A stretch of DNA of 64,000 nt, taken from an uncultured Candidatus Brevefilum sp. Lineage in GTDB: Bacteria > Chloroflexota > Anaerolineae > Anaerolineales > Anaerolineaceae. Shown piece after piece: positions 6,780-58,519 of this stretch. The notes below the pieces were generated by a model. That model was not told where the DNA came from. It saw only the letters and a list, made by a program, of their open reading frames with translations, and did no database searches. The stretch spans positions 137,302 through 201,301 of the forward strand of contig CAYPKT010000003.1 of the NCBI GenBank assembly GCA_964411385.1. Direction: 5' to 3'. Position 1 is the first letter of the stretch, and the number at the start of each line of letters is the position of its first letter. Both the position numbers and the translations under genes were made by a program.

Positions 6780-6897
6780 ATTTCCTCGATTACGGTTTTG
6801 GCTTTTAATTTTATCATTAAATTTTTATTCTTCTACCACTACGGATGTGTTAAAATGGTAGGATAATAAACAAAATGTTTTACTAAAGTAAACCTAA

Positions 6898-9804: not shown

Positions 9805-9826
9805 GAAAGTTTGTGAAATTAAAAAA

Positions 9827-9854
9827 AGAGCTGAGTAAAAAACACCTCAGCTCT
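9827..9854. terminator. Bidirectional intrinsic terminator between the convergent acyl-CoA ligase and ftsH genes
   Basis: 9-bp stem AGAGCTGAG / CTCAGCTCT, flanked by an A-run upstream and T-rich sequence downstream. Confidence 0.6.
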
Positions 9855-9871
9855 TGCCTTTTGGCTTTTGT

Positions 9872-11731: not shown

Positions 11732-11826
11732 TGATTCCTCCAGAATAAATTTATATTTTAGTTACTTTAATAACCAAAGTATTATACCAACCCAAGGTGG
11801 TCTTTTCTAGTGATATTGTTGTAAAT

Positions 11827-43340: not shown

Positions 43341-44594
43341 TTATTGACCTTCCATCCAGCGCAGGAGTTGCTGGTTGTCATCCTCCCTGTGGGCACTTTC
43401 AATCGCCCCTTTATGTTTTGCCAAAATCTGCCAGGTTGAACGCGCATAATTTTTAAATAAAAACTGTAAGCGAAGAAGGTAATTATAAATCAACGCTGGT
43501 GAATCGGGCTGCACATTGTAAAGACGTGCCATGATGTGCCTTGGAAGAAAAATCCTTTTCATTACGATACTAACTTTATCCCGCCATCGTGTGGCAGAAG
43601 CTAATCTCGCCAAGTCGGGGGTGACCATTACAGCCTCTTCAATAGGCTCCTGAAAGATCTGTGCCTTCGCCTGGATAATGACCTGCGGGTCACCAGGGCG
43701 CTCTAAGAGGCGTTCTAAGGCGTTTTGAGGCAGATGTGTGCCAAACAGGTCGTATAACAGGGTTAATGTCAGGTGTAGAACGCGATTTACTCGCCAATCA
43801 TGGGCTCGAGAAACAAGCATATCCCAATCGACCTGGTTGCCAATCCTTTCAAGGACAACATGGATATCGTAGAGTGCACCTAAACCAGCCCGCAAACGGT
43901 GTTGATAAGTGAAATGAATAGCCAGGTGTAGAACTAAATCCTCGTATGATAGGCTCAATGCCTCAATACTACCAATTTTTGAAGACAGGGCACGCTCCCA
44001 CAGCCCTTGCGGATCTACCTTGAAGCCCCAATCTGCCTCTACAATGGACCAGTGAATTTCAACATAAGGACCCCCAGGTTTGATAAAGGGGGGTATATGT
44101 TTGATATCGTTATTTTCGTCCTTTGTACTGAAATAAGCAGTTTGCTGGTACCCGAGTGCTTCCATGAGCTTGAGCGCCCTCGAAAGATGACTGCGGGGAA
44201 CGAGTAAATCGATATCGTTGAGAACTCGATCGCCGATGTTCGGATAAATGTTGTCCAAAAGATAAATCCCTTTGAGCCCAATCACTGGGACATTGGCGCC
44301 AACCAGATGGCTGATAATCCCTTCAGCATGATGCAGCAAGAGCATGTTGCGGGCTGTATTGCTGAGGTGGATGTTATGGAGACGATTGCTGATATCGGTT
44401 GGAATTGAAAAGGTGTCTGGGGGGGAGCACAGGCGCGAATAAAGCGCCATTGACAAGTTTTGCTTGGCAGCAATACCCAAGAAGGTGTCCCACTCTTCTT
44501 CTGAGAAATTTTGAATGCGGGCCAGGGCTCGTGCTGGAAAGGGACTTGCGTTGAGAACCTGGCAGAGCAGGTTAAGATGGTCTTGGGTGGTCAT
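43341..44594 (-). CDS. PF14907-like uncharacterised nucleotidyltransferase
   Basis: 417 aa. The pattern LKGIYL...GDRVLNDIDLLVP...LGY...IKHIPPF...VEIHW is typical of the NTP_transf_5 family. Confidence 0.65.
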   Translation of the reverse strand: MTTQDHLNLLCQVLNASPFPARALARIQNFSEEEWDTFLGIAAKQNLSMALYSRLCSPPDTFSIPTDISNRLHNIHLSNTARNMLLLHHAEGIISHLVGANVPVIGLKGIYLLDNIYPNIGDRVLNDIDLLVPRSHLSRALKLMEALGYQQTAYFSTKDENNDIKHIPPFIKPGGPYVEIHWSIVEADWGFKVDPQGLWERALSSKIGSIEALSLSYEDLVLHLAIHFTYQHRLRAGLGALYDIHVVLERIGNQVDWDMLVSRAHDWRVNRVLHLTLTLLYDLFGTHLPQNALERLLERPGDPQVIIQAKAQIFQEPIEEAVMVTPDLARLASATRWRDKVSIVMKRIFLPRHIMARLYNVQPDSPALIYNYLLRLQFLFKNYARSTWQILAKHKGAIESAHREDDNQQLLRWMEGQ

Positions 44595-44722
44595 AAAAAT
44601 TTTATACTAATATAAGATATTTAATATATCTTGGTGCTTCATATCAATTAATGATAAATTTTTCAAAATCACCGAGAATATTGGTGTGATAATCTGCAAT
44701 TGGATTTCAAATTAATAGTTTT

Positions 44723-47700
44723 CTATTTATTTGGACCACTGATAAAAAGCGGGAGAAAAATCCCAAATCCAGTAATTGTTGCATTTTCTTTGGGAATTAT
44801 TTCGATCGTTACCTTCGCCAGGTTAGAATCAAGGGACCCATCATTTGCAATGAAAGTAAATGAATCAGTGCCGATATAATTTCCAGTCGGTGTATAAACC
44901 CGTTCGGGCGAGCCTTGTTCGCCTGATAATAACCCGTATATTGGCTCATCGACAATTGTAAATGTAAATTCTGTATCGTCTGGATTGTTAAATAAATTGT
45001 TAGAACTTCTCAACAGCATATTACTGCTATCAGCCGTAAGAGTAATATTTATCGGTACTTCCATTCGAGTAGAAAGATCTTGGTCATGTGCGATGGGACG
45101 ATTTTTGGAAATGACTTCAAGGGTAACCGTAGCGATGTTTGAAGTTTTTGTACCATCAGAGATACTATAGGTAAAGCTATCTACCCCATAAAAACCATCA
45201 TTTGGCGTATAGTTGAATGAGCCATCTGATGAGAGATCAAGTGTGCCGTATTGAACATTGGCTGCCAAAGACGTGGTTAATGCAGCCTTGTTTGGGTTAG
45301 TATCGTTGTTTAACACGCCTGTTTCGACAGGAACAATTAATTCGGTATCTTCTAAAATTGAATAATGATCGTTTACGGCGGTTAAACTTAGAGCTATTCG
45401 CATAGCCGGATCACCAAATAGGAGGTAAGTATCAATTTGGTCAAGGTCTCGACCTGAATTCCACAGGGTAAGCAAACTATTTTGAATGGCAGTCCCTAAT
45501 TTGGGGCTGCCATGCACGAACACAGATTCCAAAAAGCCATAATTTAGCCGCTCATGACCGCGATTGGTACCCCAGCCAGTGGGTGACCAGCTGGCTGCTG
45601 CGCCTTTGCCCGGTGTACGGGTGATGACTTCAGCCAGAGAATCTCTGGTCGTTAACTGGTGTGGCCAGATATAATAGCCATCTTGGCAGGTAAATGAAAG
45701 CAAAATCGATAGTTTTTCATTGTCTGGTGCCAGCGAATTGATGTGATCGGTTTTAAAAAACACTGGGTTTTTTCCCCAGCCTCCATAATAACCGTGACCG
45801 AAATAGTTAACAAAAAGCGAACCCTGGTTAAAGCCATCTTTAATAGTTGCTGTGGCTTGGTCAAGATCTGAATGGTTTTTTTTCCAATACATCTTTTCCA
45901 AGGAATAGGGCTGTGCAGGATACAGCTGGTTTAAAATAGCGTTTAACATCGCTGCATAATTGCTGCTAGGGCTCGAATCATAATCGGTCACTGCTAAAAG
46001 GTGATGTTGCCAATCGCCAAGGGGTGGGTTCGTTTCATAGGCAATAATTTTAGCAATAAAAGCTGCAGCTTCCTCCGGGGTATTGACCGCTAAACGCCCT
46101 AAAAGCATATTCGGGAGTGTGCTTTCGGTAGAAAGGCTGACGTAACGGTTGTCTGCGGCTGTTTCGCCGATGTTAGGGTCTACATTGGCTAAAAAGGGCA
46201 GGATAAAGCTTGGTTTCCCCCAATTTAAATAGTTTTTTGGGTCATAATGACCGTCCCCCACCAGCAAAACATAGGATGGGGCAGGTTCAGCCCAGGATTC
46301 CAGGGTGTAAGCCAAAAAGTTTTGCAAAGCCAAAACATCAGTGATGCCATAACCAAATTCATCATAAATGTCTTGGATATCAACCAAAACCGTATCAAGC
46401 CCCGAACCCTGACGGTACTGACGCAAAACCTCTGCCTGCTCCAAGAAATCTGCATGAGATATGATGAGGTAATCCGCCCGGTTTGAGATCGCGCTTAAAT
46501 TAGAAGGCTTATCCAAAGTGATGCCCTCTATGCTACGAAACGTCGCAGGGGTGCCAGACCAATAATGTACTGTCCCTATGATTTCGTCTTCGAAAGATAC
46601 GGTAAAGGCTGGGCCAACTTCTTGAATATCGAAATTTTGAATCTGGACAGGTTGGTGTGGGTTACTAATATCATAAATCTCTGCATCACCGCTGGTAAAA
46701 CCTTCTAATTTATATTGCCAGGTTCCAGCTTGATGAAAATTGAAGGCGAGCTCATCGCCCACAATCTCAAAAGAGCGGTCATAATTAAACTCGACCCAAT
46801 CAATATAAAAGGTATCAATTGTAATGCCGTTGTCAGCGTGTTCTTGGATCGTAAGTGTATTTTCGCCGGCAACCAGAACCCCCTGGGGGATATCAACCTC
46901 TGCCAGGTGAAAGTTAACTCCATCCCAGCGGATGTTATCCTCGATCTGGACTCCATTAATAAAAAGGACGGCGTGGTGATCGGGGTTAACACTGATATCC
47001 TGTGTAATCCCCATTAATAGGACCCGGAGGTGGACGATTTCACTTTGGCGATTTTGTAAGGTAAAAGATAAATCCCAATTCCTATCTGGACTTACCCATT
47101 CGCTAAAAAAATGTTCATACTCTCCTGGCGCCCCAGAAGAAACATAATAAGTGTTTTTTTCTATATGATAGGTATTAACAAAAGAGGAAGGAACCGGCGA
47201 GGAGCCTTCCAAAGTACCGTCTCGGGCGCCAATCCGTAAACCAGATGTTTTCCCATAAGTGAGCCAATAGATATTATCTTTTGTATATTTGTTGTCGATG
47301 CTTTGACCGTAAAATAAGATTGATTTGTCGGGGTTGACGATAATAGCAACCTCTTCGCCCAGGTGAAATAGCTGTAAAGTGTCTGGGTTAAGGCTGTCAA
47401 TCGGCACTCCAGCATCAACCAATTGGCCTGCGGTGAGATGGTAAAAACCATCCTCTTGGATTGAGATTTTCCAAGCAGGATCTGGGAGTGACCAATGTAA
47501 AGAACGTTGTTCGGCGATGCCTCTTTCGAGGGATGAATTCAGTCCCCGCCAGGATTTAGCCACGTCATAATTTAACAAGCTGCTTTGAAAAATGCTTTCA
47601 TATATAGATGAATCGGGTTCGTAAGACCGCTGCAATTGGGATGAAGCGCCGGAGAAGCTGACTTCGACGTAAATATCTTCATAAATGGTGAGTTCATTCA

Positions 47701-48280
47701 AGTTGGGGGCCCATTGAAAGGGGTAGACCCCGATACTGACCAAGCGTTGTTTGCGCAGGGTGCCGTCGTTGACCACCTCGGCAAACTGGCCGGGGTAGGG
47801 GACGTCTGCACGGTAAACAGATGGGTCTTGTTCGTAGATGGTTGTAATCTCCTTCGGAATGGGTAACCCGTCGTTGAGCTCCGGATCTTCCCAGGTTACC
47901 ACCTCACGGCTTTGGGGGAGGATGGGTGCATCTAACTTGATGGTATGGGCTTTTCCGGGGCTAACATGGAGGTCAATGGACGCACCGAACGGGGCGCCGA
48001 TCGCCTGGGTAAAGAAGGGCAGCTGGGGTGCACCTGGATCGCCTGAAGTCGGCCACCCCGGTAACAAAATTTGCGTATAATCCCCTGAGTTTGTCGATAA
48101 CAATTCTTGGATCACCCGGTCGGCAGGAACGTTGAGTGTAAAACTTAACCCATAGCTATCGCTTGAATGCAGTGTGATCTCACCCTCATCAACCACGGCG
48201 CTAACAGCACTGCCGGGCGATGGTGTTATAAGGGTGATCAAAATACCTGTAGTGAGGAGAATGTTGATTATTTTTTTCAT
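44723..48280 (-). CDS. Secreted gingipain-like (peptidase C25 family) protein with two C-terminal cadherin/Ig-like modules and a short hydrophobic tail
   Basis: Signal peptide and a propeptide-like N-terminus. Catalytic-type motifs FVNYFGHGYYGGWG (His) and LLSFTCQDGYY (Cys). Two repeats of the type VLNNDTN...YTPNDGFYGVDSFTYSISDG. The tail is ITGFGIFLPLFISGPNK. Confidence 0.72.
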   Translation of the reverse strand: MKKIINILLTTGILITLITPSPGSAVSAVVDEGEITLHSSDSYGLSFTLNVPADRVIQELLSTNSGDYTQILLPGWPTSGDPGAPQLPFFTQAIGAPFGASIDLHVSPGKAHTIKLDAPILPQSREVVTWEDPELNDGLPIPKEITTIYEQDPSVYRADVPYPGQFAEVVNDGTLRKQRLVSIGVYPFQWAPNLNELTIYEDIYVEVSFSGASSQLQRSYEPDSSIYESIFQSSLLNYDVAKSWRGLNSSLERGIAEQRSLHWSLPDPAWKISIQEDGFYHLTAGQLVDAGVPIDSLNPDTLQLFHLGEEVAIIVNPDKSILFYGQSIDNKYTKDNIYWLTYGKTSGLRIGARDGTLEGSSPVPSSFVNTYHIEKNTYYVSSGAPGEYEHFFSEWVSPDRNWDLSFTLQNRQSEIVHLRVLLMGITQDISVNPDHHAVLFINGVQIEDNIRWDGVNFHLAEVDIPQGVLVAGENTLTIQEHADNGITIDTFYIDWVEFNYDRSFEIVGDELAFNFHQAGTWQYKLEGFTSGDAEIYDISNPHQPVQIQNFDIQEVGPAFTVSFEDEIIGTVHYWSGTPATFRSIEGITLDKPSNLSAISNRADYLIISHADFLEQAEVLRQYRQGSGLDTVLVDIQDIYDEFGYGITDVLALQNFLAYTLESWAEPAPSYVLLVGDGHYDPKNYLNWGKPSFILPFLANVDPNIGETAADNRYVSLSTESTLPNMLLGRLAVNTPEEAAAFIAKIIAYETNPPLGDWQHHLLAVTDYDSSPSSNYAAMLNAILNQLYPAQPYSLEKMYWKKNHSDLDQATATIKDGFNQGSLFVNYFGHGYYGGWGKNPVFFKTDHINSLAPDNEKLSILLSFTCQDGYYIWPHQLTTRDSLAEVITRTPGKGAAASWSPTGWGTNRGHERLNYGFLESVFVHGSPKLGTAIQNSLLTLWNSGRDLDQIDTYLLFGDPAMRIALSLTAVNDHYSILEDTELIVPVETGVLNNDTNPNKAALTTSLAANVQYGTLDLSSDGSFNYTPNDGFYGVDSFTYSISDGTKTSNIATVTLEVISKNRPIAHDQDLSTRMEVPINITLTADSSNMLLRSSNNLFNNPDDTEFTFTIVDEPIYGLLSGEQGSPERVYTPTGNYIGTDSFTFIANDGSLDSNLAKVTIEIIPKENATITGFGIFLPLFISGPNK

Positions 48281-48320
48281 TTAATTGACTATCCTGGTTT
48301 ATTATTTTTTACCCTAAAAC

Positions 48321-49187
48321 CTAAGCATTTTCAATGGTTTCTACCAGGTTAGACCCCTGCTGATAGGCGAGCGTGAAGAATGGTACATGGGTTGTCAAGC
48401 CTTCTAAATTTTCTAAAATATGATTGATTAATTCTGAGCGATAATAAGGAATGAAGGCTGTTTGTAAAATTTTTAAAACCCCATTGGCTGCGGTAAGCGC
48501 GGATAAGGTTTGCGGAGAGGACCTGTCGAGGAAGAACAATTTTTTCAAGGGTACACCTAAAGGGGAGCAGCGATCTGCCCGCACATGCCAGGGCGTGCCG
48601 TAGATCCAAAACTGTCCATCCTGGTAACGGAGGATAACCTGGTCCTCACCTAAAACGGTGATCCCCGGTTTGTCGGCTAAATCATCGGCGATGGTTGATT
48701 TCCCTGCACCGGATGGACCAAAAAAGACATAGCCTGAGCCAGCAAGGGCGACACCTGAGGCGTGCAAGATGAGGTCACCGTAATTTGCCAGGTAATTTGA
48801 AAACAAAACTATGTCTAAATATTGCAGCGGGTAAAAATCAAGCTCTCCTGGAGTATTTTGATCAATAAATACCTCTCCACATTGAAAGTTAGGGTCGATC
48901 ACCACCCAGCGTTTTGGCAAAATTTCAGACAGGAAAAACACATAATTCCCAGCGGGCTCTTTCCATAGTTCCCAAAGTGGGTTTTTAACAATCAGGTGAT
49001 TAGCCAATGGGCTTTTGAACACATGCTCAGATAATAATAGCCTTATAGGCATTGGACGATCAGCTAATAACCCCACTGGTAAATCTTCAGAAAGAAGAAA
49101 ACCCTGGTAAGATGACGGAAGCCAGGTGGGTTGTGTTGAACTCCTGGCTTCCAGAATGAGTTGTGAACCTCCGATAGATAAAATCAC
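48321..49187 (-). CDS. HPr-kinase-related (HprK C-terminal-domain-like) P-loop kinase
   Basis: LILHASGVALAGSGYVFFGPSGAGKSTIADDL matches the HprK-like Walker A region. The start is a GTG at 49187 and is uncertain. Confidence 0.65.
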   Translation of the reverse strand: MILSIGGSQLILEARSSTQPTWLPSSYQGFLLSEDLPVGLLADRPMPIRLLLSEHVFKSPLANHLIVKNPLWELWKEPAGNYVFFLSEILPKRWVVIDPNFQCGEVFIDQNTPGELDFYPLQYLDIVLFSNYLANYGDLILHASGVALAGSGYVFFGPSGAGKSTIADDLADKPGITVLGEDQVILRYQDGQFWIYGTPWHVRADRCSPLGVPLKKLFFLDRSSPQTLSALTAANGVLKILQTAFIPYYRSELINHILENLEGLTTHVPFFTLAYQQGSNLVETIENA

Positions 49188-49281
49188 AAAGAAATTTTCG
49201 TTGATTACAAAAACGAAATTTATTGGTTAATTCGTGTAAAAATATTAACCTATTAATAACGAAGGTAAGGATCATCCCCGG

Positions 49282-49467
49282 TTACGGGTGTGCACCTTCA
49301 GGACAGCCAACATGTTGATCATAACAAGCAATAGTCCATCCAGATGAGCCGGGAATTTCTTCTGCGGGGTATAAATTTGGGCTGGTATGGCAAACACCTA
49401 AGATAGCGCTTTTATAGGCAAGCTCTACTTTTTTAACGGTTGGCGCTGTGTATGGCTTTTTATTCAT
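49282..49467 (-). CDS. Candidate RiPP precursor peptide (61 aa, 3 Cys)
   Basis: MNKKPYTAPTVKKVELAYKSAILGVCHTSPNLYPAEEIPGSSGWTIACYDQHVGCPEGAHP. SD AGGAGA lies 9 nt upstream of the ATG at 49467. This start overlaps the stop of the radical SAM gene by 8 nt. Confidence 0.6.
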   Translation of the reverse strand: MNKKPYTAPTVKKVELAYKSAILGVCHTSPNLYPAEEIPGSSGWTIACYDQHVGCPEGAHP

Positions 49468-50572
49468 GGCTATGGATCTCCTTTGAAACATTCATTATGT
49501 TAATAATATCATATTCTGTATTTTTTGCCAATTGGCAAACATAATCGACAATGCTTTCATTATCGCCGTAAACCAATTGCGAGAACCCTGGGCATTGAGC
49601 ACATAACCCCGAAGCGGTGCAGGTTAAACAGGATGAAGGTTGTGTGCGTAATCTTTTAGGTTCAAGCCCCAGTTTTTTCCAGGCAGCGTCAAAGCCTGTG
49701 GTTAATACATCGTAAGACGTTTGACGTGCCATCATGCATAAATTAATGCGTCCGGCACTGTCAATATGAAATGATCGAAACCCAGCACCGCAATGGTAGA
49801 TGCGCTCATCTCTTAAGGTCAGCCCATTTGTATTTTCAAAGGTTTGAATCCAACCCTCCATACGCTTTGGGTCACGATGATTAAGTTTCAGCATGTCATC
49901 GATAGAAAGGCGGTAATTAAAATTGTCGTTGTTCCCATCGAGCCGGGGCCAGATGGTGCCATCATAATGTAATTCAACCCCGTAACTATCAGCGAGAGCG
50001 ACCATGTTTTGTAAGTCATGCTTATTTAGGCTGATCACCACCGATTTAAGGACGAATTTAATCCCACTGCTGGCGATTAAATCCAACCCAGCGGTAAAAC
50101 GTCTAAAAGAACCTGGAATGCGGGTGACAGCTTCATAAGTTTCTTCTGTTCCACCATACATGGTGACCTCAATTTGGGAAGGTGGGGCATCTAACAGCAT
50201 GTCTATGATCTTTGGCGTCATCATGGTGGCGTTCGTGAACAAGGTGATGATCAAGCCTTTTTTGCGGGCATACTGGTAAATTTCAGAAAAATCGGGGCGC
50301 AGCAGAGGTTCACCGCCGGTTATCAACAGGAACAGGGTGCCGGCTGCAGCAATTTGGTCGAAAATCGATTTAACTTGCGGGGTTGTCATTTCAGCCGCAA
50401 TCGCTTCAAGGCTGCCAGGCGGCTGGTTGATATAACAATGGACGCAGTTTAAATTGCAGCGGCTGGTGAGGTCAATACTGCCGCTGAGCGGGAATCGAGC
50501 ATCACCGATCGGCTTGTAAAATTGCTCCCACCAGGTAGCATTGTCAATTTCAGGGATGTTTAAACAATCCAT
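49460..50572 (-). CDS. Radical SAM enzyme with a C-terminal SPASM-like auxiliary cluster domain
   Basis: CNLNCVHCY (CxxxCxxC), GGEPLL, and a Cys-rich C-terminus (CGAGF...LCMM...CLTCTASGLCAQCPG). The start is either the ATG at 50572 or the GTG at 50617; the latter would overlap the PqqD gene by 38 nt. Confidence 0.85.
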   Translation of the reverse strand: MDCLNIPEIDNATWWEQFYKPIGDARFPLSGSIDLTSRCNLNCVHCYINQPPGSLEAIAAEMTTPQVKSIFDQIAAAGTLFLLITGGEPLLRPDFSEIYQYARKKGLIITLFTNATMMTPKIIDMLLDAPPSQIEVTMYGGTEETYEAVTRIPGSFRRFTAGLDLIASSGIKFVLKSVVISLNKHDLQNMVALADSYGVELHYDGTIWPRLDGNNDNFNYRLSIDDMLKLNHRDPKRMEGWIQTFENTNGLTLRDERIYHCGAGFRSFHIDSAGRINLCMMARQTSYDVLTTGFDAAWKKLGLEPKRLRTQPSSCLTCTASGLCAQCPGFSQLVYGDNESIVDYVCQLAKNTEYDIINIMNVSKEIHSHE

Positions 50573-50579
50573 AAGGTAT

Positions 50580-50870
50580 TTAAATCGCCTCCAAAGCTCC
50601 GATTTCAACCATATCACCGATGAAAGGCTCTAAATCGGAATGGGCATCATCTAAAGATACCAAAAACTCATCCAGAATCGAGCTGACTAATTCATCAAGA
50701 GTTTTTGGGTTTTCAAGCTGTTCCCACACGAAGGCGCCGATTTCGTTTAAAGAAAAGATATGATCCATCTCAGCTACGTCCTTGTGGACGGGCACGAGGA
50801 TGGTTTCTTCTGCGATTTTTCGATAAATGAAATCGGGATTTCTACGATAATGTATTATCGTTTCGGACAT
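50580..50870 (-). CDS. PqqD-family protein (RiPP recognition element-like)
   Basis: 96 aa. RRNPDFIYRKIAEETILVP...IFSLNEIGAFVWEQLENPKTLDELVSSILDEF matches the PqqD pattern. SD GGAGG lies 5 nt upstream. Confidence 0.8.
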   Translation of the reverse strand: MSETIIHYRRNPDFIYRKIAEETILVPVHKDVAEMDHIFSLNEIGAFVWEQLENPKTLDELVSSILDEFLVSLDDAHSDLEPFIGDMVEIGALEAI

Positions 50871-50879
50871 ATTGACCTC

Positions 50880-51428
50880 CTAAGATAAGTATTTACAAAA
50901 ACCTGGTACACATTTTAAAGGACGGTTGGTTAACCTAAGGTGATTATAACGGTTGAGTTGATGTCTGAGGCTGAAAACCATCCACAGAGAAAGCAACCGC
51001 ATGGATGAACGACTCATGCTGAAGTGTTCGCCAGTGCGCTCAAAAGACGCTAAGCGTCCATAAATAGCCTCAAGTGAAATCCATCCGTCAGCTTGAATAG
51101 AATTGTCAGCTTGCAGGAGAAACCTATGGCCAGATTCGTGTTGGCGTATTCGAATCACCCGATGAAGGACCATGCGGCCATGTTTATCAGCGAAGAAAAC
51201 CACATCACCAACCCGGATTGGGCCACCTGCAAGTGGAGTAATTAACAACATATCTCCCTGCCTAATGATCGGGACCATACTGTCCCCCGTGGCAAGCAGC
51301 CTGACAGCTTTACCGGAACGCAAACCCTCCTGGCATAAGTATGTGAAAACGTCAGGCGAGGGGGAGAACTTCTCTAGTAGAAATGGTTGGTTTGGGTTAC
51401 CTGGTCGAGTAGAAGGCATAACAATCAC
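50880..51428 (-). CDS. S26B (Sec11/SipW-type, Ser-His) signal-peptidase-like protein lacking an N-terminal TM helix
   Basis: ATGDSMVPIIRQGDMLLI, VGDVVFF, MVLHRVI and LLQADNS parallel the SGSMEP / GD / THRI / GDNN boxes of SipW-type enzymes. The start is either the GTG at 51428 or the ATG at 51419. Confidence 0.65.
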   Translation of the reverse strand: MIVMPSTRPGNPNQPFLLEKFSPSPDVFTYLCQEGLRSGKAVRLLATGDSMVPIIRQGDMLLITPLAGGPIRVGDVVFFADKHGRMVLHRVIRIRQHESGHRFLLQADNSIQADGWISLEAIYGRLASFERTGEHFSMSRSSMRLLSLWMVFSLRHQLNRYNHLRLTNRPLKCVPGFCKYLS

Positions 51429-51463
51429 AATACCGTGGAGAATTAATCACTTGAATAGGAAGT

Positions 51464-51496
51464 CTGCTGCGACGATTATAATTTTCATCGCAGCAG
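51464..51496 (-). other. Conserved stem-loop 15 nt after the secreted-protein stop codon (copy A)
   Basis: CTGCTGCGA / TCGCAGCAG, a 9-bp stem with a 15-nt loop. There is no U-tract on either strand. Confidence 0.55.
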
Positions 51497-51511
51497 GTGG
51501 TATCCTGTGAT

Positions 51512-52720
51512 CTAAGGTCGAGCTGCGGAGACCGGGCCAAACAATTCAGGCGTGTAGCTGGTATCGGAGGGAACGTCCTCGATCCAGTAGAAATAGGTCA
51601 GGCCGAGCTCAGCTGTGGTATCGAGGTAAGCGTAGTTGGCGCCGAAGGGGTTACCAGGGTTCGAATCGCCGACAATGATTTTACCGTTGATTTTTTCCTT
51701 AACACCGAACTCCATCTCAGAGCGATAAACGTTGAAGCCCAGGTGGTTGACTTCGGTAGCGGTGACCCAATTAAGTTGAATCCCGCCAGAGACGCCTTCA
51801 GCCTGGAGGTCGAGCATAATCACCGGGGTGATATCTTCGTTAGTGATGGCAGCGTATACACAATAGCAGTTATTTGTTTGCTCGGCAGTATACACCAGGT
51901 TATTTGAAAAGTCGGTCCCAATTGGAACGGTTGAGGGGCATTGCCCTGACGCAGGCTTATCGATAAAACCCAACAGGGAGACGGTGTATTCCCGTTCGAC
52001 TGGGTCGCCAGGCGTAGTGATGTTATCTACACATGTAAAATATTGTGTGTCACCTGGTTTGGTAATATTGACCCTGTCTGCACAGCCATTGCGGTTGGGA
52101 CCAGTATCTCCAGATACGTTTGGATAAGCTGAGCCACCCGGCCAATTGGGAGAGCTTGGGCCATATCTGCAAGGACTTTGGTTGTTCGTCGTCTCATCCA
52201 GGTTAAAGGTATAGACGAAATCCATCGTAGTTGGAGCATCCACCACATATGGTAGGTCACAAGCTAAACCGCTGATTGTAGCGGTGAGATCTACATACTC
52301 AAATGGATTATTGGGTGTAGAAATCGGGTTGTTAAAATGACAAAACGTGCCCACGTTAAAGGGAGTATTCAACGCGGGAGCATCGCCGATCCCTGTGCGT
52401 CCGAGGAAACCAAAACCACTTTTATTGCCAAAGGTATCTGATGAACCATAGCGTACCTGGTTCCAGTCAAAAGTTACGCGATTTTGAGTGTAAAGGTGAT
52501 TATTAGATCCGGAGGTAGAAGTAGTTTTGTAAGTCGGGTTGTCGTAATCATTTGAAGTAGCAGCTGGCCCGGTTGCCCACGTATTTCCGGTGGCTCCTCC
52601 GCCGCTATCAATTAACCCCCACACGCCATCCACACTGTTCATCGTAAAGGCTTGGACGACGCCTGTCAAGGTCAACGCTGCCATTAGCAGGCCAAAAATT
52701 AAAAGTATTTTCTTTTTCAT
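51512..52720 (-). CDS. Secreted Cys-rich protein, FCHFNN (THxN / choice-of-anchor-K-like) N-domain plus FN3-like C-domain, paralog A
   Basis: Signal peptide MKKKILLIFGLLMAALTLTGVVQA|FT. Motifs NQVRYGS...GFGFLG...GDAPALNTPFNVGTFCHFNNPI, and C-terminal LNWVTATEVNHLGFNVYR...YFYWIEDV. The ATG at 52720 has a 6-nt spacer from GGAG; an alternative ATG is at 52726. Confidence 0.75.
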   Translation of the reverse strand: MKKKILLIFGLLMAALTLTGVVQAFTMNSVDGVWGLIDSGGGATGNTWATGPAATSNDYDNPTYKTTSTSGSNNHLYTQNRVTFDWNQVRYGSSDTFGNKSGFGFLGRTGIGDAPALNTPFNVGTFCHFNNPISTPNNPFEYVDLTATISGLACDLPYVVDAPTTMDFVYTFNLDETTNNQSPCRYGPSSPNWPGGSAYPNVSGDTGPNRNGCADRVNITKPGDTQYFTCVDNITTPGDPVEREYTVSLLGFIDKPASGQCPSTVPIGTDFSNNLVYTAEQTNNCYCVYAAITNEDITPVIMLDLQAEGVSGGIQLNWVTATEVNHLGFNVYRSEMEFGVKEKINGKIIVGDSNPGNPFGANYAYLDTTAELGLTYFYWIEDVPSDTSYTPELFGPVSAARP

Positions 52721-53005
52721 CACCATCTCCTTAATTTAATTATCATAAATTGATAAATATTTCCCTTGTTTTAATAATTTACCCATCTTAAAAATTTGCT
52801 CTTTTGAGCTGAACTTATTAAAGTATAACGAAATAAAAAATAATTGTCAATATTTATTTTCTATTTTAAACGGTTTTCCTAATTTAAAAACAAATATCAT
52901 TAAATTACATTAAGAAAGTTTTGAAATAAATTTAAATACATGAATAACACAAATTGATTGCGACCCCTACAGCGGTGGTTTTGCGGTGCTCCTTAAGATA
53001 TCCTG

Positions 53006-53800
53006 TTACCTGATGGGTAATATGACGCAAGGATCGGGCTTTCCCGTTTCAGCTTGTGCACCGCAAAACCCAAAGTATTCATCACGGCTACCGCCAAATT
53101 GATTAGTGTTGATAAACTCCCACATAAAGGTGCCGCTGGTGTATGGTGTGGTCCAATTGCCTTGAGCACTTAATTCATCATAATAAGTTGTCGTAAATTC
53201 GTATTGGACACCACCTATTTTTCCGACCCCGATCAATTGAGAGGCGTTATTTGTAATTTTAACTTCACCTATCTTGAAAGTTCCATCAGGATCCTGAAAC
53301 CACACTGCCCAATCCCCGATCCAGAGTGTTTGTGGCGTGGCAGTTGGTTTAGGTGGGGGTGTGGAGGTTGGCTTCAACCCCGCAGGCTTGCTTTGGGTAG
53401 GGTCAGGTAAACTTGGCTGGGTGGAGGTGGGCACGCTGGTGGATGTTCTGCCAGGGTTGCCAGGCAGAGTTGTTGAACCAGCCTGGGGGGGCAAACCGGT
53501 CAGGTTGGGCGTAAAATTTACGTCTGGATGGGCACTCGTCGGGTTGAAACCGGAGCTTGAGTGATCAGCCCCAGGCGAACTTGCGTCCTCAGTTGGGCGG
53601 ACGGGTGCAAAAGGATCTAGCCCTACAAAGAACGAGGTCGGGGTTGGGCTGGGTTGCACCTCAGAATGGGTGGCGACTGCCCAGTCACCAGTGAAACCCT
53701 GGTTTGTTATCGATTTATTTTCAGCGCGGACATACCAAACGGTGGAGGCGATCAACGTTATGGTTAAGATGCTCAATAAGGTTATTGAATTTCGTCTCAT
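53006..53800 (-). CDS. Membrane-anchored protein with a Pro/Thr/Ser-rich linker and a conserved C-terminal globular domain, paralog A
   Basis: N-terminal TM helix ITLLSILTITLIASTVWYV, a low-complexity PT-rich segment, and C-terminus WIGDWAVWFQDPDGTF...FGFCGAQAETGKPDPCVILP. Paralog of 55832-56626. Confidence 0.7.
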   Translation of the reverse strand: MRRNSITLLSILTITLIASTVWYVRAENKSITNQGFTGDWAVATHSEVQPSPTPTSFFVGLDPFAPVRPTEDASSPGADHSSSGFNPTSAHPDVNFTPNLTGLPPQAGSTTLPGNPGRTSTSVPTSTQPSLPDPTQSKPAGLKPTSTPPPKPTATPQTLWIGDWAVWFQDPDGTFKIGEVKITNNASQLIGVGKIGGVQYEFTTTYYDELSAQGNWTTPYTSGTFMWEFINTNQFGGSRDEYFGFCGAQAETGKPDPCVILPIR

Positions 53801-53830
53801 AATAATTTAATTATAAGCGCTTTAGCTAAA

Positions 53831-53972
53831 AGAGAATAGTGAGTGGTGAATAGGAATTAGGGAATAGGAAGTAGGGATTAGGAAGGAGGAAGTAGGAAAT
53901 AGAGAATAGGAAATAGGAATTGGGAATTAGGGATTAGAGATTAGGAAGGAGGAAGTAGGGATTAGGGATTAG
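53831..53972. repeat. Heptanucleotide tandem array GRAWTAG, about 19 units (array A)
   Basis: Read by eye: tgaatag gaattag ggaatag gaagtag ggattag gaaggag gaagtag gaaatag ... ggattag ggattag. Confidence 0.9.
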
Positions 53973-54046
53973 ATCAGACTGTCATCTTTAGGTCGATTTT
54001 CATCAAAGGGGTAGTACCAGATGATGTAGGCGATCAACCCGAGCAG
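53969..54046 (-). pseudogene. 3'-terminal relic of a VanZ-like gene (duplication junction)
   Basis: 78 nt nearly identical to 56830-56907, the last ~25 codons plus stop of the intact VanZ-like gene. Similarity stops abruptly after GAGCAG. Confidence 0.8.
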
Positions 54047-54061
54047 ATCGCTTAACTCGCG

Positions 54062-54148
54062 TTACCAAAGCTCAAAAACTTCAGGCGAAGGTGCGGGTTT
54101 CATTGCAATAAGGGGCTGAGATGGGTTACTTGGTTGGTTAGAAGGCAT
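54062..54148 (-). pseudogene. 5'-terminal relic of the S26B-like peptidase gene (duplication junction)
   Basis: Encodes MPSNQPSNPSQPLIAMKPAPSPEVFELW*, versus MPSTRPGNPNQPFLLEKFSPSPDVFTYL of the intact gene. The upstream leader is also homologous to 51420-51511. Confidence 0.75.
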
Positions 54149-54193
54149 GATGGTCACGATGCTATGGTGAAATAATCCCATGTTGAGGGCAAC

Positions 54194-54226
54194 CTGCTGC
54201 GATAATCATTACGATCATCGCAGCAG
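54194..54226 (-). other. Conserved stem-loop after the secreted-protein stop codon (copy B)
   Basis: CTGCTGCGAT / ATCGCAGCAG, a 10-bp stem. The loop sequence differs from copy A. Confidence 0.55.
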
Positions 54227-54241
54227 TTGGTATCCTGTGAT

Positions 54242-55540
54242 CTAAGGTCGAGCTACGGAGACCGGGCCAAACAACTCAGGCGTGTAGCTGGTGTCGGAGG
54301 GAACGTCCTCCACCCAGTAGAAATAGGTTACGCCGGGTTCAGCTGTGGTATCGAGGTAAGCATAGTTGGCACCGAAGGGGTTACCGGGGTTTGAATCGCC
54401 AACAACGATTTTATTGTTGATTTTTTCCTTGACACCGAACTCCATCTCAGAGCGGTAAACGTTGAAGCCCAGATGGTTGACTTCGGTGGCGGTGACCCAG
54501 GTAAGTTGAATACCCGTTGAGACGCCCTCAGCAGCGAAGTCGAGCATAACCACCGGGGTGATATCTTCTTTAGTGATAGCAGCGTATGCACAATAGCAGT
54601 TATTGGTTTGTTCGGCGGTATAAACCAAGTTGTTTGAAAAGTCGGTTCCAATTGGAACGGCTGCAGGGCATTCCCCTGACGCAGGCTTATTGATAAAGCC
54701 CATCAGGGAGACGGTGTATTCGCGTGTAATTATATTAAGAGGATCGGCGTTATCCACACATGTAAAATATTGTGTGTCACCCGGTTTGGTAATATTGACC
54801 CTATCTGCACAGCCATTGTAATTTAATTGACCAGGGGCAGGCTGAGGGTTATTATAAGCTTCCTGCCCCGACGTGCAATAACTGCCACCATTAGCAGGCC
54901 AATTCGTGGATGAAGGCCCAAATGGACAGGCATGATAAACAGTGACAAGACTAGTTCTACATTTACAATCTCCTGTGCCCCATTCCCACGGCCAACATAA
55001 ACCTTGATTATTCGACGTCTCGGTCAGATTAAAACGATAATCGAAAGTCATTTCAGCTTGTGATGGGTCTGCCAAGATAAAAGGGTGTTCGCATTCGATA
55101 CCGGTGATTTTAACCTTAAGGTCAACCCAGTCCAAAGGGGCATTAGCACTAATTTCATTGTTGAAATGACAAAACTGGCCCACGTTGAAAGGGATATTCA
55201 ACGCAGGGGCATCGCCGATGTTTTGGTGCCCAAGGAAACCAAAGCCGCTTTTTGAGCCAAAGGTTGATGTTGAACCATAGCGTACCTGGTTCCAGTCATA
55301 TAGGACTTGGTTTTGGGTGGTAATTCGAGCAGCAACACTGTCTGTGGAATGTTGTGGAACATTAAAATCACCTCCAGAGAGAGGCCCACTTGCCCAAATT
55401 TGCCCAGTAGCGCCAGAATCTGTTCCGTTGATTTTATCCCATACACCGTCCACGTTGGCCATAGTAAAAGCCTGGACGACGCCGGTTATGGTTAAGGCGA
55501 GAAAAAATAAACCGAGAATTATAAATACCTTATTCTTCAT
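54242..55540 (-). CDS. Secreted Cys-rich FCHFNN protein, paralog B (carries an extra Cys-rich insertion)
   Basis: Signal peptide MKNKVFIILGLFFLALTITGVVQA|FT and motif FNVGQFCHFNNEI. There is a ~30-aa insertion LCWPWEWGTGDCKCRTSLVTVYHAC. The C-terminal half is close to 90 percent identical to paralog A. An alternative ATG is at 55546. Confidence 0.75.
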   Translation of the reverse strand: MKNKVFIILGLFFLALTITGVVQAFTMANVDGVWDKINGTDSGATGQIWASGPLSGGDFNVPQHSTDSVAARITTQNQVLYDWNQVRYGSTSTFGSKSGFGFLGHQNIGDAPALNIPFNVGQFCHFNNEISANAPLDWVDLKVKITGIECEHPFILADPSQAEMTFDYRFNLTETSNNQGLCWPWEWGTGDCKCRTSLVTVYHACPFGPSSTNWPANGGSYCTSGQEAYNNPQPAPGQLNYNGCADRVNITKPGDTQYFTCVDNADPLNIITREYTVSLMGFINKPASGECPAAVPIGTDFSNNLVYTAEQTNNCYCAYAAITKEDITPVVMLDFAAEGVSTGIQLTWVTATEVNHLGFNVYRSEMEFGVKEKINNKIVVGDSNPGNPFGANYAYLDTTAEPGVTYFYWVEDVPSDTSYTPELFGPVSVARP

Positions 55541-55831
55541 TTCCATCTCCTTAAATTAATCGTTTAAATTGTTCAATAAATATAATTGTTAAATAAGCTC
55601 CCTTTTATTTTGATTTACTAAACTAACCAGCTATTTATTGAGTATAAATGAGAATAATTCTTATGTCAAACATTTTTTGGGCGCAAATCAAAGAAAAATA
55701 TCTGCATTGTTTATCAAGAATATTTCAGGTTAATGCTATAGCGTAAGGGACAAATATCAACTGATGAAAAAAACAAACTATGTATCACTAGGTTAATGGT
55801 TGAACCCTTTGCGAAATTTCTACATATCGTG

Positions 55832-56626
55832 TTATCTTAGCGGTAATATGACGCAAGGGTCAGGCTTTCCAGATTTTTCTCTTGTGCCGCAAAACCCAAA
55901 GTATTCATCGTGGCTTCCGCCAAATTGGTTGGCGTTGATGAACTTCCAACGGAAATAGCCACTGGTAGCGGGTGTAGTCCAATAACCTTCGGCTTTCTCT
56001 TCGTCAAACCCTAAAATATCTAATTCGTATTGAACGCCGCCAATTTTACCAATGCCAATTAATTGAAGTGCATTAAATGTGATCTTTATCTTACCAGCTA
56101 TGAAAGTCTCATCAGGATGTTGGAACCAAACGGTCCACTCTCCTACCCAGGGAGCTTGAGCTATTTTAGTTTGAGTAGGTAGTGGGGTAAGCGTGGAGTA
56201 AGTGCCTGTAGGTTTGTTTTGGGTAGGACCCGGTAAGACCGGCTGGGTGGAGGTGGGCACGCTGGCAGGTGTTTTGCCTGGGTTGCCGGGCTGAGCAGTT
56301 GTGCCAAGTTGGTGGGGCAGGTCAGTCAGGTTGGGCGTAAAATTTACGTCTGGCTGGTCACCTAGCGAGTCAGGAGCGGGGTTTGAAAGATTGTCGCTGG
56401 ACGAACCTGAATCTTGTGTTGGGCGGACGGGTGCAAAGGGGTCTAACCCTGCAAAGAACGAAGTCGGGGTTGGGCTGGGTTCCGCCTGTGAATGGATGGT
56501 GACAGCCCAGTCAACTGTGAAACCCTGTTCGCCCCGTGATTTGTTTTCTGCGTACCCAAACCAAAAAGTGGAGATAATCATTACCGTGGTTAGGATAGTT
56601 AAAAGGATAATGGAGTTGCGTTTCAT
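55832..56626 (-). CDS. Membrane-anchored PT-linker protein, paralog B
   Basis: 264 aa with the same architecture and length as 53006-53800. C-terminus WVGEWTVWFQHPDETF...FGFCGTREKSGKPDPCVILP. Confidence 0.7.
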   Translation of the reverse strand: MKRNSIILLTILTTVMIISTFWFGYAENKSRGEQGFTVDWAVTIHSQAEPSPTPTSFFAGLDPFAPVRPTQDSGSSSDNLSNPAPDSLGDQPDVNFTPNLTDLPHQLGTTAQPGNPGKTPASVPTSTQPVLPGPTQNKPTGTYSTLTPLPTQTKIAQAPWVGEWTVWFQHPDETFIAGKIKITFNALQLIGIGKIGGVQYELDILGFDEEKAEGYWTTPATSGYFRWKFINANQFGGSHDEYFGFCGTREKSGKPDPCVILPLR

Positions 56627-56656
56627 AATAATATAATTACCGATGTTTTAGTGACA

Positions 56657-56833
56657 AGAGAATAGTGAGTGGTGAATGAGAAGTAGGAAATAGGAAGTAG
56701 GAAGTAGGAAATAGGGATTAGGGAATAGGAAATAGGGACTAGGAATTAGGAAGTAGGAAATGGGGATTAGGAAATAGGGATTAGGAAATAGGAAATAGGG
56801 ATTAGGAAGGAGGAAGTAGGAATTAGGGATTAG
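56657..56833. repeat. Heptanucleotide tandem array GRAWTAG, about 24-25 units (array B)
   Basis: gaagtag gaaatag gaagtag gaagtag gaaatag ggattag ggaatag ... gaattag ggattag. The last unit contains the VanZ stop codon. Confidence 0.9.
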
Positions 56834-57264
56834 ATCAGACTGTCATCTTTATGTCGATTTTCATCAAAGGGGTGGTACCAGATGATGTAGGTGATCAACC
56901 CGAGCAGGGCACCCCAGCCCGCCATCAATATGTCGCGGGTGTTGAACCCCCGATCGGGGATCAGGTTCTGGTAAAGCCCATTAACCAAGGCGAAAAGGAC
57001 TGCAAGAACAAAGGCTGCCAGCAGACTCATGGCATTGGATGGTTTGGTCCAGATGGTGGCACGCGCTATGAAAAAGGTAAAACCCATGTAAAGGATCACC
57101 TGGGTAAACATCAGGATAAACTGATCTAATTGGATGTTTAGAAAGCGGATGTTTTCCGCGGTTTCTTTCAGCCCAAACAGGGGGTTAGGATTGCTGGACG
57201 CCAGGAAGATCAACAGCGCCCAGATGATAAGGGGATGCCAGCGTTTACGTAAAAAATGGTTCAT
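56830..57264 (-). CDS. VanZ-like membrane protein
   Basis: 144 aa, 4 TM helices, and C-terminal DRGFNTRDILMAGWGALLG, which is typical of the VanZ-like family. Confidence 0.7.
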   Translation of the reverse strand: MNHFLRKRWHPLIIWALLIFLASSNPNPLFGLKETAENIRFLNIQLDQFILMFTQVILYMGFTFFIARATIWTKPSNAMSLLAAFVLAVLFALVNGLYQNLIPDRGFNTRDILMAGWGALLGLITYIIWYHPFDENRHKDDSLI

Positions 57265-57335
57265 GGTATTAGGGGATTGGGAATTAGGAAATATGAATTA
57301 GGAAATAGGGATTAGGAATTAGGTAATTGGAAAAA
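57265..57335. repeat. Heptanucleotide array of the same family, about 9-10 units (array C)
   Basis: ggtatta ggggatt gggaatt aggaaat atgaatt aggaaat agggatt aggaatt aggtaat. It abuts the VanZ start codon. Confidence 0.8.
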
Positions 57336-57391
57336 TTATGGTTTTGTTGATTAATTTTGATAAAGAAAGTAGTTAAGGTTGCGTTCATAAG

Positions 57392-58519
57392 TTAATTGAA
57401 GATCTCTGCAATAGCTTCGACAACGCAGGTGACCTGGTCTTCAGTCATGGTTGGGTAGAGCGGTAGGGTCACCTGGCGGCGGGCGACGGATTCGGTCAAG
57501 GGCAAGGGAGGGTTATGCCCATAAATTTTGAAACTGGTCACAGGGGGGTAATGCCAGCTAACTTGAATCCCTTTTTCTTTCATGGCGTCCATAAAGTGAC
57601 GCTTATCCGCATCACTGGGCAATAAGACCGGCATGATGTGGTAACTGCTTTGGCCACGTTGCTGTCCAAAGGGCACATTGATTTGGGGCGTTAAGCTGGC
57701 AAATTTCTCGCGATACAGTGCGGTTAGCTGTGCGCGGCGGCGATTGCCTGCCGCCACTTTTTTTAGCTGAACCCGCCCTAAGGCAGAGCGCAATTCGTCA
57801 ATACGGTAGTTGTAACCCAGGTCGACCACGTCGTAGGTGCTGGCGTGCCCTTGGTGGCGGTCCCAGGTGAGGGTGGTCATCCCGTGAGAGCGCAGGATGC
57901 GAATTTTTTCTGCCAATTCATCATCATCGGTAACCAACATGCCGCCTTCCGCGGTGGTCATGTTTTTGTTGGCAAAGAAAGAATAACAGCCAAGCTTTCC
58001 CCAGGAACCTAAGGCACGACCTTCCAATGAGGCGCCAACGGCGTGGGCAGCATCTTCAATCACTGCCAGGTTGTGCTGTTCTGCAATTTCAAGGATGGCT
58101 GGCATGTCACAGGGGTAACCGGCATAGTGCATCACCATGATGGCTTTGGTTTTATTAGTAATGGCTGCCTTAATGGATAGGGGCGAGATATTGAGCCAAT
58201 CCTCGCTTTCGATATCGACAAACACGGGTGTTGCATCGGTATAGCGGATGGTATTGGCACTGGCGACGAAGGTCAGCGCTGGTAGAATGACTTCATCCCC
58301 GACGCCTAATCCAGCGGCTAAGCAAGCTAAATGTAGCGCCGCGGTAGCATTTGTGACAGCAAAGGCATGTTTACAGCCAGCAAAGGTGGCAAATTCAGCT
58401 TCAAACGCCTGGGTGACAGCGCCCATCGAGAGCCAGCCAGAACGAATAACTTCAACGATGGCGGCTTCCTCTTCAGCGTTGAGGTTAAGGTCAGAAAGAG
58501 GGACTTTCCAATTGATCAT
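57392..58519 (-). CDS. DegT/DnrJ/EryC1/StrS-family PLP-dependent sugar aminotransferase
   Basis: 375 aa. Family pattern AVTNATAALHLA...DAAHAVGA...FSFFANKNMTTAEGG. Confidence 0.88.
   Translation of the reverse strand: MINWKVPLSDLNLNAEEEAAIVEVIRSGWLSMGAVTQAFEAEFATFAGCKHAFAVTNATAALHLACLAAGLGVGDEVILPALTFVASANTIRYTDATPVFVDIESEDWLNISPLSIKAAITNKTKAIMVMHYAGYPCDMPAILEIAEQHNLAVIEDAAHAVGASLEGRALGSWGKLGCYSFFANKNMTTAEGGMLVTDDDELAEKIRILRSHGMTTLTWDRHQGHASTYDVVDLGYNYRIDELRSALGRVQLKKVAAGNRRRAQLTALYREKFASLTPQINVPFGQQRGQSSYHIMPVLLPSDADKRHFMDAMKEKGIQVSWHYPPVTSFKIYGHNPPLPLTESVARRQVTLPLYPTMTEDQVTCVVEAIAEIFN

Follow-up and report, generated by a model that had tools for sequence, protein, structure and literature searches.

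What do three arrays of a seven-nucleotide repeat do between the genes of a single locus, if they do anything at all? The question is raised by a 64-kb stretch of DNA from an uncultured Candidatus Brevefilum sp. (contig CAYPKT010000003.1, positions 137,302 to 201,301; hereafter the window), in which the arrays, called A, B, and C, read GRAWTAG on the plus strand and are flanked by genes that all lie on the minus strand, among them the VanZ-like gene VanZ2 (Table 1). Few long repeats in bacteria are as over-represented as heptamer repeats, which have no agreed function; their over-representation is credited by Rehm et al. to a 2007 study, as cited there (PMC4692102). Very probably, to judge from sequence, the arrays are slippage-evolving heptanucleotide repeats of a known class and not an RNA gene or sponge. 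The fuller reading, that they are transcribed as length-variable, structure-free leaders or spacers before genes without a Shine-Dalgarno (SD) site and possibly tune expression, is put forward with modest confidence. A separate claim, that array length has a selected regulatory effect, is doubtful.

Repeat units and strand composition

The first-pass annotation, made from the sequence alone, had placed three arrays at these sites, and the placement is borne out by unit counts in register (Table 1), by Tandem Repeats Finder, and by pattern matching. By Tandem Repeats Finder, runs of period 7 span 53851-53972 (17.4 copies), 56680-56827 (21.1 copies), and 57280-57333 (7.7 copies); repeat purity is 76-82% matches, and there are higher-order periods of 21, 28, and 35. 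The 21-bp super-period, which corresponds to two helical turns, might allow phased DNA bending. When one mismatch is allowed, a two-unit GRAWTAG pattern, run on both strands with shuffles as control, gives 36 matches as against 0.47 in the shuffles; every match lies on the plus strand within arrays A-C, and the pattern detects no array of this type elsewhere in the window.

The units are heterogeneous. Sixteen types occur among 52 clear units, with 10-11 types per array, and the top unit makes up 20-24% of the units of an array. The commonest four, GGATTAG (10), GAAATAG (9), GAAGTAG (8), and GAATTAG (7), account for 34 of the 52. Read in the register GGRAWTA, the units conserve G1, G2, A4, and T6, and position 3 is G in 22 of 52.

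The arrays had been described as purine-only, or almost purely purine, a description that does not survive a count: the plus strand is 73-81% purine and 20-27% T. What is nearly absent from that strand is C, with 1 C in 390 nt, and one of 17 distinct departures from GRAWTAG makes a C (naive P about 0.004, the events being partly non-independent). The sharp compositional property of the arrays is the lack of G in the minus-strand, gene-sense RNA, not purine purity.

A G-rich strand of this kind might adopt a non-B structure, either a G-quadruplex on the G-rich template strand or a triplex (H-DNA), that modulates transcription or replication. GG runs recur every 7 nt and yield 11, 26, and 4 two-tetrad-type motifs in A, B, and C, respectively, and the related GGGAATC and GGGGAYT heptamers fold into G-quadruplexes in vitro (Rehm et al., PMC4692102). 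Against such a structure, none of the three arrays holds a canonical quadruplex motif (four GGG runs, loops <=7 nt): about a third of units contain GGG, and the 6, 7, and 3 GGG runs of A, B, and C never come four in a row. The triplex, also proposed in the first pass, is disfavored by the purine runs, the longest of which is 13 nt in A and B and 7 nt in C; with T in every unit, there is no long mirror-repeat homopurine tract. A role through non-B DNA is very unlikely.

GGA and UAG also recur at a strict 7-nt period on the plus strand, which is what an antisense, purine-rich RNA would need to act as a sponge, through GGA for a CsrA-type protein or through UAG for a HutP/TRAP-type protein. The GGA version had been suggested earlier by analogy with CsrB and RsmZ, and it finds no hairpins to present the motif: the minimum free energy of plus-strand array RNA is 0 to -0.6 kcal/mol, and its centroid is unpaired. 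Rfam returns no match for the arrays at gathering score or at E<=5, no plus-strand promoter-like or terminator-like site brackets any array, and neither a CsrA nor a HutP gene is seen in the window. In other genomes, moreover, arrays occur in both orientations and frequently run up to start codons on the pyrimidine strand. A sponge is extremely improbable. HutP recognizes UAG triplets 4 nt apart; HutP/TRAP-like binding of plus-strand (NNNNUAG)n, or of a sense-strand CCU-N4 pattern, was considered and dropped, the plus-strand transcript having no support.

Array position and the array-adjacent genes

As minus-strand RNA, the three array tracts are the only 78-nt windows without G on either strand of the 64 kb. 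The G-free sense tracts span 53827-53974 (148 nt), 56656-56835 (180 nt, one G), and 57263-57381 (119 nt), contain 29-37% C, and at array C run 45 nt beyond the repeat into non-repeat DNA. Every unit holds a pyrimidine-C (YC) dinucleotide (51, 62, and 22 per tract), stop codons close the sense RNA in every frame, and over 102-149 nt its predicted minimum free energy is 0 to -0.8 kcal/mol. The sense strand of the window holds no sequence complementary to the arrays.

On the minus strand, the genes follow one another in the order DegT, VanZ2, 264-aa, 434-aa, 264-aa, and 404-aa. Array C occupies the 127-nt spacer between DegT and VanZ2, array B the 203-nt spacer between VanZ2 and the first 264-aa gene, and array A, together with a 74-nt VanZ2 remnant, the 441-nt spacer between the 434-aa gene and the second 264-aa gene. 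All three arrays are intergenic, yet they reach the edges of the coding sequences, much as the first pass had it. Array B starts at the VanZ2 stop codon, its first unit supplying the TAA; array C comes to within 2 nt of the VanZ2 ATG; and A and B stop 32 nt short of the 264-aa gene ATGs, where about 30 nt had been given. The genes that the arrays precede encode a membrane protein (VanZ2) and the anchored 264-aa proteins. No SD site is found at VanZ2 or at either 264-aa gene, whereas GGAGG or AGGAG stands before many other window genes.

A promoter-like site, TTATCA-17-CATAAT, lies at the upstream edge of array C and is kept in the three contigs of a sister lineage (L145-L147). This site, a consensus match only, would place array C in the VanZ2 5' leader, and since array C touches the start codon, it can be inferred to lie in any leader-bearing VanZ2 mRNA. 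The earlier suggestion of an untranslated-region (UTR) spacer or CU-rich leader fits this anatomy, in which array C abuts the ATG, a conserved promoter-like site lies upstream, and three genes lack an SD site. A sigma-70 promoter was also sought for the 264-aa genes and rejected: in copy 2, TTGTCA-16-TATATT ends 3 nt before the ATG, and in copy 1, TATAAT ends 9 nt before the ATG without a -35 element. Leaderless transcription of copy 1 is possible on this sequence.

A mechanism consistent with this anatomy can be sketched. Very probably, slipped-strand mispairing and unequal exchange create and resize the arrays, which are of the GGRAWTA/GGGANTN type, and tandem duplication of a block comprising the VanZ 3' end, the 264-aa gene, and the 434-aa gene copied array B into array A. 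Unit number, in 7-nt steps, would then set graded expression of the downstream gene. One conceivable route is SD-independent ribosome loading on the single-stranded, pyrimidine-rich array RNA; another is Rho loading on naked, C-rich, G-free array RNA, and the two may combine.

Rho loading also stands as a separate account of the arrays. Rho prefers at least 70-80 nt of RNA that is unstructured, free of ribosomes, rich in C, and poor in G, and by these published criteria the array RNA is, from its predicted properties, ideal (PMC6407284). The arrays might accordingly serve as Rho entry sites, at which transcription running on from the upstream sugar-nucleotide operon, from VanZ2, and from the 434-aa gene is stopped or weakened, so that each cassette gene is insulated. 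No tracts in the window have a more extreme excess of C over G (they are 148, 180, and 119 nt long and hold 0-1 G), their RNA is unstructured, untranslatable, and supplied with YC in each unit, and no intrinsic terminator is predicted on the minus strand in the array-bearing intergenic regions. The 64 kb contain no rho gene, however. Among the matches listed in the genome search below, the repeat class is commonest in cyanobacteria, which are not known to have Rho, so Rho loading cannot explain the class as a whole. Insulation by Rho is an improbable account of the arrays.

Duplication and mosaic identity

Arrays A and B lie within a tandem duplication with its junction at 54046/54047 and differ in unit number and order, as had been noticed from the sequence. 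Their alignment stays in register apart from a single 35-nt (5-unit) gap, with many interior unit substitutions and with both ends conserved, a difference that accords with continued slippage.

Identity is distributed unevenly over the duplicated units. Between units 1 and 2, 54-57 of every 60 aligned columns agree in the VanZ remnant and the array units next to it, and by BLAST the identity to unit 2 is 91% over 53849-54046 and 96% over 53939-54046. A second block of high identity takes in the final ~160 aligned codons of the 434-aa and 404-aa genes (87-92%; synonymous divergence, dS, 0.18-0.47). The remainder of the duplicated units is about 61-72% identical, with dS of about 0.8-1.1. A non-coding remnant so similar, beside genes with dS near 1, must have been copied or converted recently. 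Between the two recently homogenized blocks lies a variable core (the 264-aa gene together with the initial two-thirds of the 434-aa and 404-aa genes, dS about 1), an arrangement that suggests gene conversion or allele replacement. Positions 1-1128 of contig L128, from a relative, hold a mosaic 264-aa gene, in which nt 1-116, including 17 nt 5' of the ATG, resemble copy 1 and nt 117-1128 are 96.6% identical to copy 2. The contig begins 17 nt before the ATG, near the expected array position.

Same strain and sister lineage

Eight assemblies carry the locus. Seven of the matching contigs are 100% identical to the window or one single-nucleotide polymorphism (SNP) off (L005), the eighth (L148) differs by 3 SNPs, and all array lengths are equal. 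These are consensus assemblies from at least three studies, several ending in or beside arrays, and the identical contigs come from biogas-plant metagenomes, some of them from full-scale plants. Array A is identical in L001, L002, and L148, and array B in L001, L002, L005, and L006. Recovery base for base, or within 3 SNPs, in eight independent assemblies argues that the arrays are not an assembly artefact. Classical on/off phase variation, one of the roles proposed in the first pass, is unlikely, given 10-11 unit types per array and no length change among eight assemblies of the same or near-identical strains.

The short-read contigs L003, L004, L007, L128, and L146, from this organism and its relatives, end in or beside heptamer arrays, and L016, from another genome, ends at an array of like unit type. 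Contig ends at arrays indicate that arrays fragment assemblies, which limits copy-number inference from assemblies. As a practical matter, arrays of the GRAWTAG type are a source of fragmentation in metagenome-assembled genomes.

The sister lineage (L145-L147) is 88-93% identical to the window in the neighboring sugar genes and 96-97% in VanZ2. In these three independent contigs, array C has 5 units fewer but one C more, which makes it 34 nt shorter, a difference between related lineages that upholds the earlier claim of continued slippage. Array B in L146 starts at the same stop codon and keeps the same unit order, with one substitution, up to the contig end. Compared with L146 2660-3094, VanZ2 shows a nonsynonymous divergence (dN) of 0.033 and a dS of 0.080, whereas dS is 0.26 in the adjacent DegT gene. 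On these values, the two lineages may recently have exchanged the VanZ2 segment that the arrays flank.

Such mosaic identity raises the question of whether the arrays act as recombination handles, offering with their flanks the homology for gene conversion and unequal crossing-over that would amplify, collapse, or exchange the variable 264-aa/434-aa cassette. The 54-57 matching columns beside genes with dS of about 0.8-1.1, the second homogenized block, the L128 mosaic, and the low VanZ2 divergence are all in keeping with this idea, and a rearrangement role has been suggested for heptamer arrays in Bacteroidetes and Microcystis (MacGregor, 2015, PMC4679880). The original duplication, on the other hand, was not array-mediated, for its junction is found inside VanZ coding sequence at a distance of 74 nt from the array, and one recent event, not continuing exchange, could give the high identity. 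The probability that the arrays are such handles is low.

Distribution in other genomes and viruses

A three-unit GRAWTAG pattern run against a species-representative genome set, a search that gives a lower bound on loci, finds arrays of this type in at least 120 genome loci across many phyla. By record title, about a third of the matches listed are cyanobacterial, and the others belong to Bacteroidota, Acidobacteriota, Planctomycetota, Firmicutes, Chloroflexota, and more. The arrays elsewhere take forms such as (GGGAATA)n, (GGGATTA)n, and (GGAATTA)n, lie nearly always between open reading frames (ORFs), and often stand beside other heptamer arrays. Pure arrays of these three units occur in cyanobacteria, Planctomycetes, Acidobacteria, Chloroflexota, Bacteroidota, and a Dokdonella. 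A 20-mer common to the gene-proximal ends of A and B is found at 8 unrelated metagenome loci, within other heptamer arrays.

The three-unit pattern also matches 119 viral contigs. On one of these, L218 (IMG/VR 3300038696_000410, 1634-12644), it occurs at five or more separate sites within 13 kb, which indicates that the family is dispersed on this putative phage genome. In unrelated soil and peat contigs (L138 at about 9600-9720, L140, L141/L142, L143, and L144), arrays of the GTGAATA/GTGAGTA type form inverted pairs 10-60 nt apart, which could fold into long imperfect hairpins. The pyrimidine arm extends up to or near an ATG in L143 and apparently also in L141/L142.

Neutral slippage or selected leaders

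The chief competitor of the leader reading is a neutral account, in which the arrays are a by-product of slippage without selected effect, tolerated because they lie between genes and within a region closed by stop codons in every frame. Much of what weighs against the leader reading comes from this side. In the distant relatives L132, L133, and L135, whose 434-aa protein is 47-55% identical, the cassette is single-copy, the partner gene follows directly after the upstream gene, and the cassettes contain no heptamer arrays; the arrays are therefore dispensable for the cassette and are lineage-specific additions. The window arrays look decayed, the commonest unit having a share of 0.20-0.24 as against a median of 0.68 in arrays elsewhere, and unit heterogeneity together with identity in eight assemblies indicates that they are not fast-switching. 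Orientation gives little help. Over about 150 gene flanks in other genomes, in a survey that took the longest ORF as the gene and left out start-codon distances, the bias, on crude ORF calls, is weak (36 window-like, 23 opposite) and not significant. Related repeats in Xanthomonas and Nostoc, members of a widespread class, showed no regulatory role in functional testing (Rehm et al., PMC4692102), and in other taxa strains go their own ways in the position and length of their arrays (MacGregor, 2015, PMC4679880).

Three further points weigh in the same direction. The cumulative GC skew rises over nearly the whole window (1-64000), with a plus strand that is G-rich throughout and probably leading; the G-rich strand of the arrays is also the G-rich strand of the window, so array orientation could follow replication rather than transcription. 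Arrays A and B are copies of one another, which leaves only two independent arrays that share orientation and SD lack. Finally, A and B are only probably transcribed, as intercistronic spacers or leaders.

A neutral account is nonetheless somewhat unlikely. Sense-strand G is avoided even in variant units and in the 45 nt of non-repeat DNA by array C, the same two positions still carry arrays in a lineage that has diverged by about 8%, and every array-adjacent gene lacks an SD site. A variant of the leader reading holds that composition, not exact sequence, is selected: a G-free, structure-free leader, modular and evolvable, would replace the SD site by drawing ribosomes to single-stranded pyrimidine RNA through S1-type or cold-shock-protein (Csp)-type binding, expose the transcript to Rho, so that unit number grades the expression of an accessory surface-protein cassette, and double as homology arms for cassette swapping. 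G avoidance in variant units, the G-free non-repeat extension, the three SD-less genes, and the homogenized array flanks are in keeping with this variant, which as a whole is quite unlikely.

The locus amounts to a compact natural experiment, in which two paralogous arrays differ in length by 5 units, a third shows a 5-unit difference between sister lineages, the repeat is fused to start and stop codons, and the sense strand lacks G. If array length or G-freeness sets expression or Rho loading, the locus would provide a testable mechanism for a very widespread repeat class; otherwise, it is a clear case of such repeats growing, decaying, and homogenizing within a duplicated cassette.

Cassette context

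The duplicated genes belong to a cassette (window 43341-56626) that is conserved in the distant relatives L132, L133, and L135. Its members are a membrane-anchored partner protein (264-292 aa), a ~430-aa protein that is secreted, an S24-like peptidase (for which L132 has no call), PqqD, a radical SAM enzyme, a ScmC-like (HprK-related) protein, and a C25 peptidase of ~1185 aa that bears cadherin-like domains; in the window and in L132, an NTP_transf_5 protein comes next. In transcription order, the S24-like peptidase, PqqD, and radical SAM genes come after the 404-aa gene. By its gene content, the cassette looks like a peptide-maturation or surface-protein system without described function. Of the 62 homologues in the ~430-aa family, some carry fused lamin-tail or DUF11 domains. 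A search for orthologues through flanking proteins found almost no homologues of the 264-aa protein or of VanZ2; the sole VanZ match (P0005) is syntenic with the window's other VanZ gene and is array-free.

Both the 434-aa and the 404-aa protein have signal peptides, and both genes carry AAGGAG 6 nt upstream of the second ATG. About 95 nt upstream of each gene, at 55641-55669 and 52822-52850 on the minus strand, lies a promoter-like site close to consensus, TTGACA-17-TATACT (11/12 matches). Kept in both duplicates at this distance, the site implies a sizeable 5' UTR. An imperfect inverted repeat, CTGCTGCGATGATCGTAATGATTATCGCAGCAG, with arms of about 13 nt and without a U-tract, is located tens of nt past the 434-aa stop (about 54185-54225, minus strand); it may be a non-canonical terminator or an RNA-stabilizing hairpin. 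Elsewhere in the window, an in-frame 15-bp tandem repeat at 29283-29379 encodes, in a sugar-binding protein, an (EEPAV)n linker that comes right behind the lipoprotein signal (LLGAC).

Table 1. Arrays, genes, and associated features of the locus (positions in the window)
Feature	Position	Strand	Remarks
Array A	53833..53972	minus	20 heptamers; GRAWTAG on plus strand, CTAWTYC in mRNA sense; between VanZ 3' remnant and 264-aa gene copy 1
Array B	56659..56833	minus	25 heptamers; first sense unit CTAATCC includes VanZ2 stop TAA
Array C	about 57267..57336	minus	about 10 heptamers; abuts VanZ2 ATG (57264)
Non-repeat continuation of G-free tract upstream of array C	57337..57381	minus	includes promoter-like site
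Promoter-like site TTATCA-17-CATAAT	57335..57363	minus	upstream edge of array C
Promoter-like site TTGTCA-16-TATATT	56630..56657	minus	between array B and 264-aa ATG (copy 2); -10 too near ATG for a normal leader
DegT-type aminotransferase gene	57392-58519	minus	adjoins array C spacer
VanZ-like gene VanZ2, 144 aa	56830..57264	minus	Pfam VanZ E=2.3e-6, just under gathering score; arrays C and B on its flanks
Partner gene copy 2, 264 aa	55832..56626	minus	N-terminal membrane anchor, Pro/Thr/Ser-rich linker; no SD site; almost no homologues
Partner gene copy 1, 264 aa	53006..53800	minus	63% protein identity to copy 2, dS about 1.1
Secreted protein copy 2, 434 aa	54242..55546	minus	432 aa if second ATG used
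Secreted paralogue copy 1, 404 aa	51512..52726	minus	
Duplication unit 2	54047..56907	minus	VanZ2 3' end, array B, 264-aa gene, 434-aa gene and downstream spacer
Duplication unit 1	51450..54046	minus	VanZ remnant, array A, 264-aa gene, 404-aa gene; right-hand boundary approximate
Non-coding VanZ2 3'-end remnant	53973..54046	minus	brought along by the tandem duplication; similarity to its parent far above that between the flanking genes

Comparison with known heptamer repeats and related systems

The first pass likened the arrays to the short tandemly repeated repetitive (STRR) sequences of cyanobacteria, a comparison that holds for kind and fails for unit. Both are tandem heptanucleotides in non-coding DNA, and in cyanobacterial genomes the window unit type adjoins classical STRR-like arrays such as (CTGACCA)n. 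The STRR1-3 units are CCCCAGT, TTGGTCA, and CAACAGT. Assignment of the window arrays to STRR by unit was rejected, as the GRAWTAG variants differ from all three of these units. As far as can be judged, the setting differs as well, for the window samples come from anaerobic biogas plants, and the window genes are saccharolytic and housekeeping, none of them cyanobacterial.

In position, the arrays resemble the TAACTGA heptamers of marine Beggiatoaceae, also present in cyanobacteria and Bacteroidetes, which in Beggiatoaceae lie just upstream of SD-less start codons (MacGregor, 2015, PMC4679880). The two systems share arrays in forward orientation directly upstream of SD-less starts, 7-nt indels between sister strains, contigs that often end in arrays, and near-identical repeat regions that flank paralogous ORFs, as in an Elizabethkingia case. 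They differ in unit and in scale: 169 dispersed sets are found there and three local arrays here, the window arrays being much longer.

In Haemophilus influenzae, expression of hmw is inverse to the repeat number of (ATCTTTC)n in the 5' UTR (PMC12721329). Like the window arrays, the hmw1A/hmw2A repeat is a G-free, pyrimidine-rich sense heptamer before duplicated surface-protein loci, with repeat numbers that differ between loci. The hmw repeats, however, are perfect and hypermutable, whereas the window units are heterogeneous and near-identical strains are invariant, and the hmw repeat pairs with a G-rich arm as an RNase III hairpin, whereas the window RNA is unstructured. A hairpin of this type was looked for and rejected, the window holding no complementary sense-strand copy and the minimum free energy being about 0.

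Natural Rho utilization (rut) sites are not tandem repeats, but the array tracts share their other hallmarks, namely a length of >78 nt, C far above G, and an unstructured, untranslated RNA with regular YC spacing (PMC6407284).

The closest class is the G-rich GGGANTN-type heptamer repeats of Xanthomonas, Nostoc, and other bacteria. The window arrays differ from this class in having no predicted canonical G-quadruplex, in being far more heterogeneous (10-11 unit types), and in their host, a low-GC (about 42%) organism of anaerobic digesters. GGGAATC and GGGGAYT arrays favor sites upstream of ORFs, where they occupy the non-coding strand (Rehm et al., 2015, PMC4692102). The window arrays likewise consist of tandem 7-nt units with G-G-x-A-x-T, are intergenic with the G-rich strand non-coding upstream of ORFs, and differ in length and sequence between related genomes at one intergenic position, and several window units (GGGATTA, GGGAATA) fit the GGGANTN pattern exactly.

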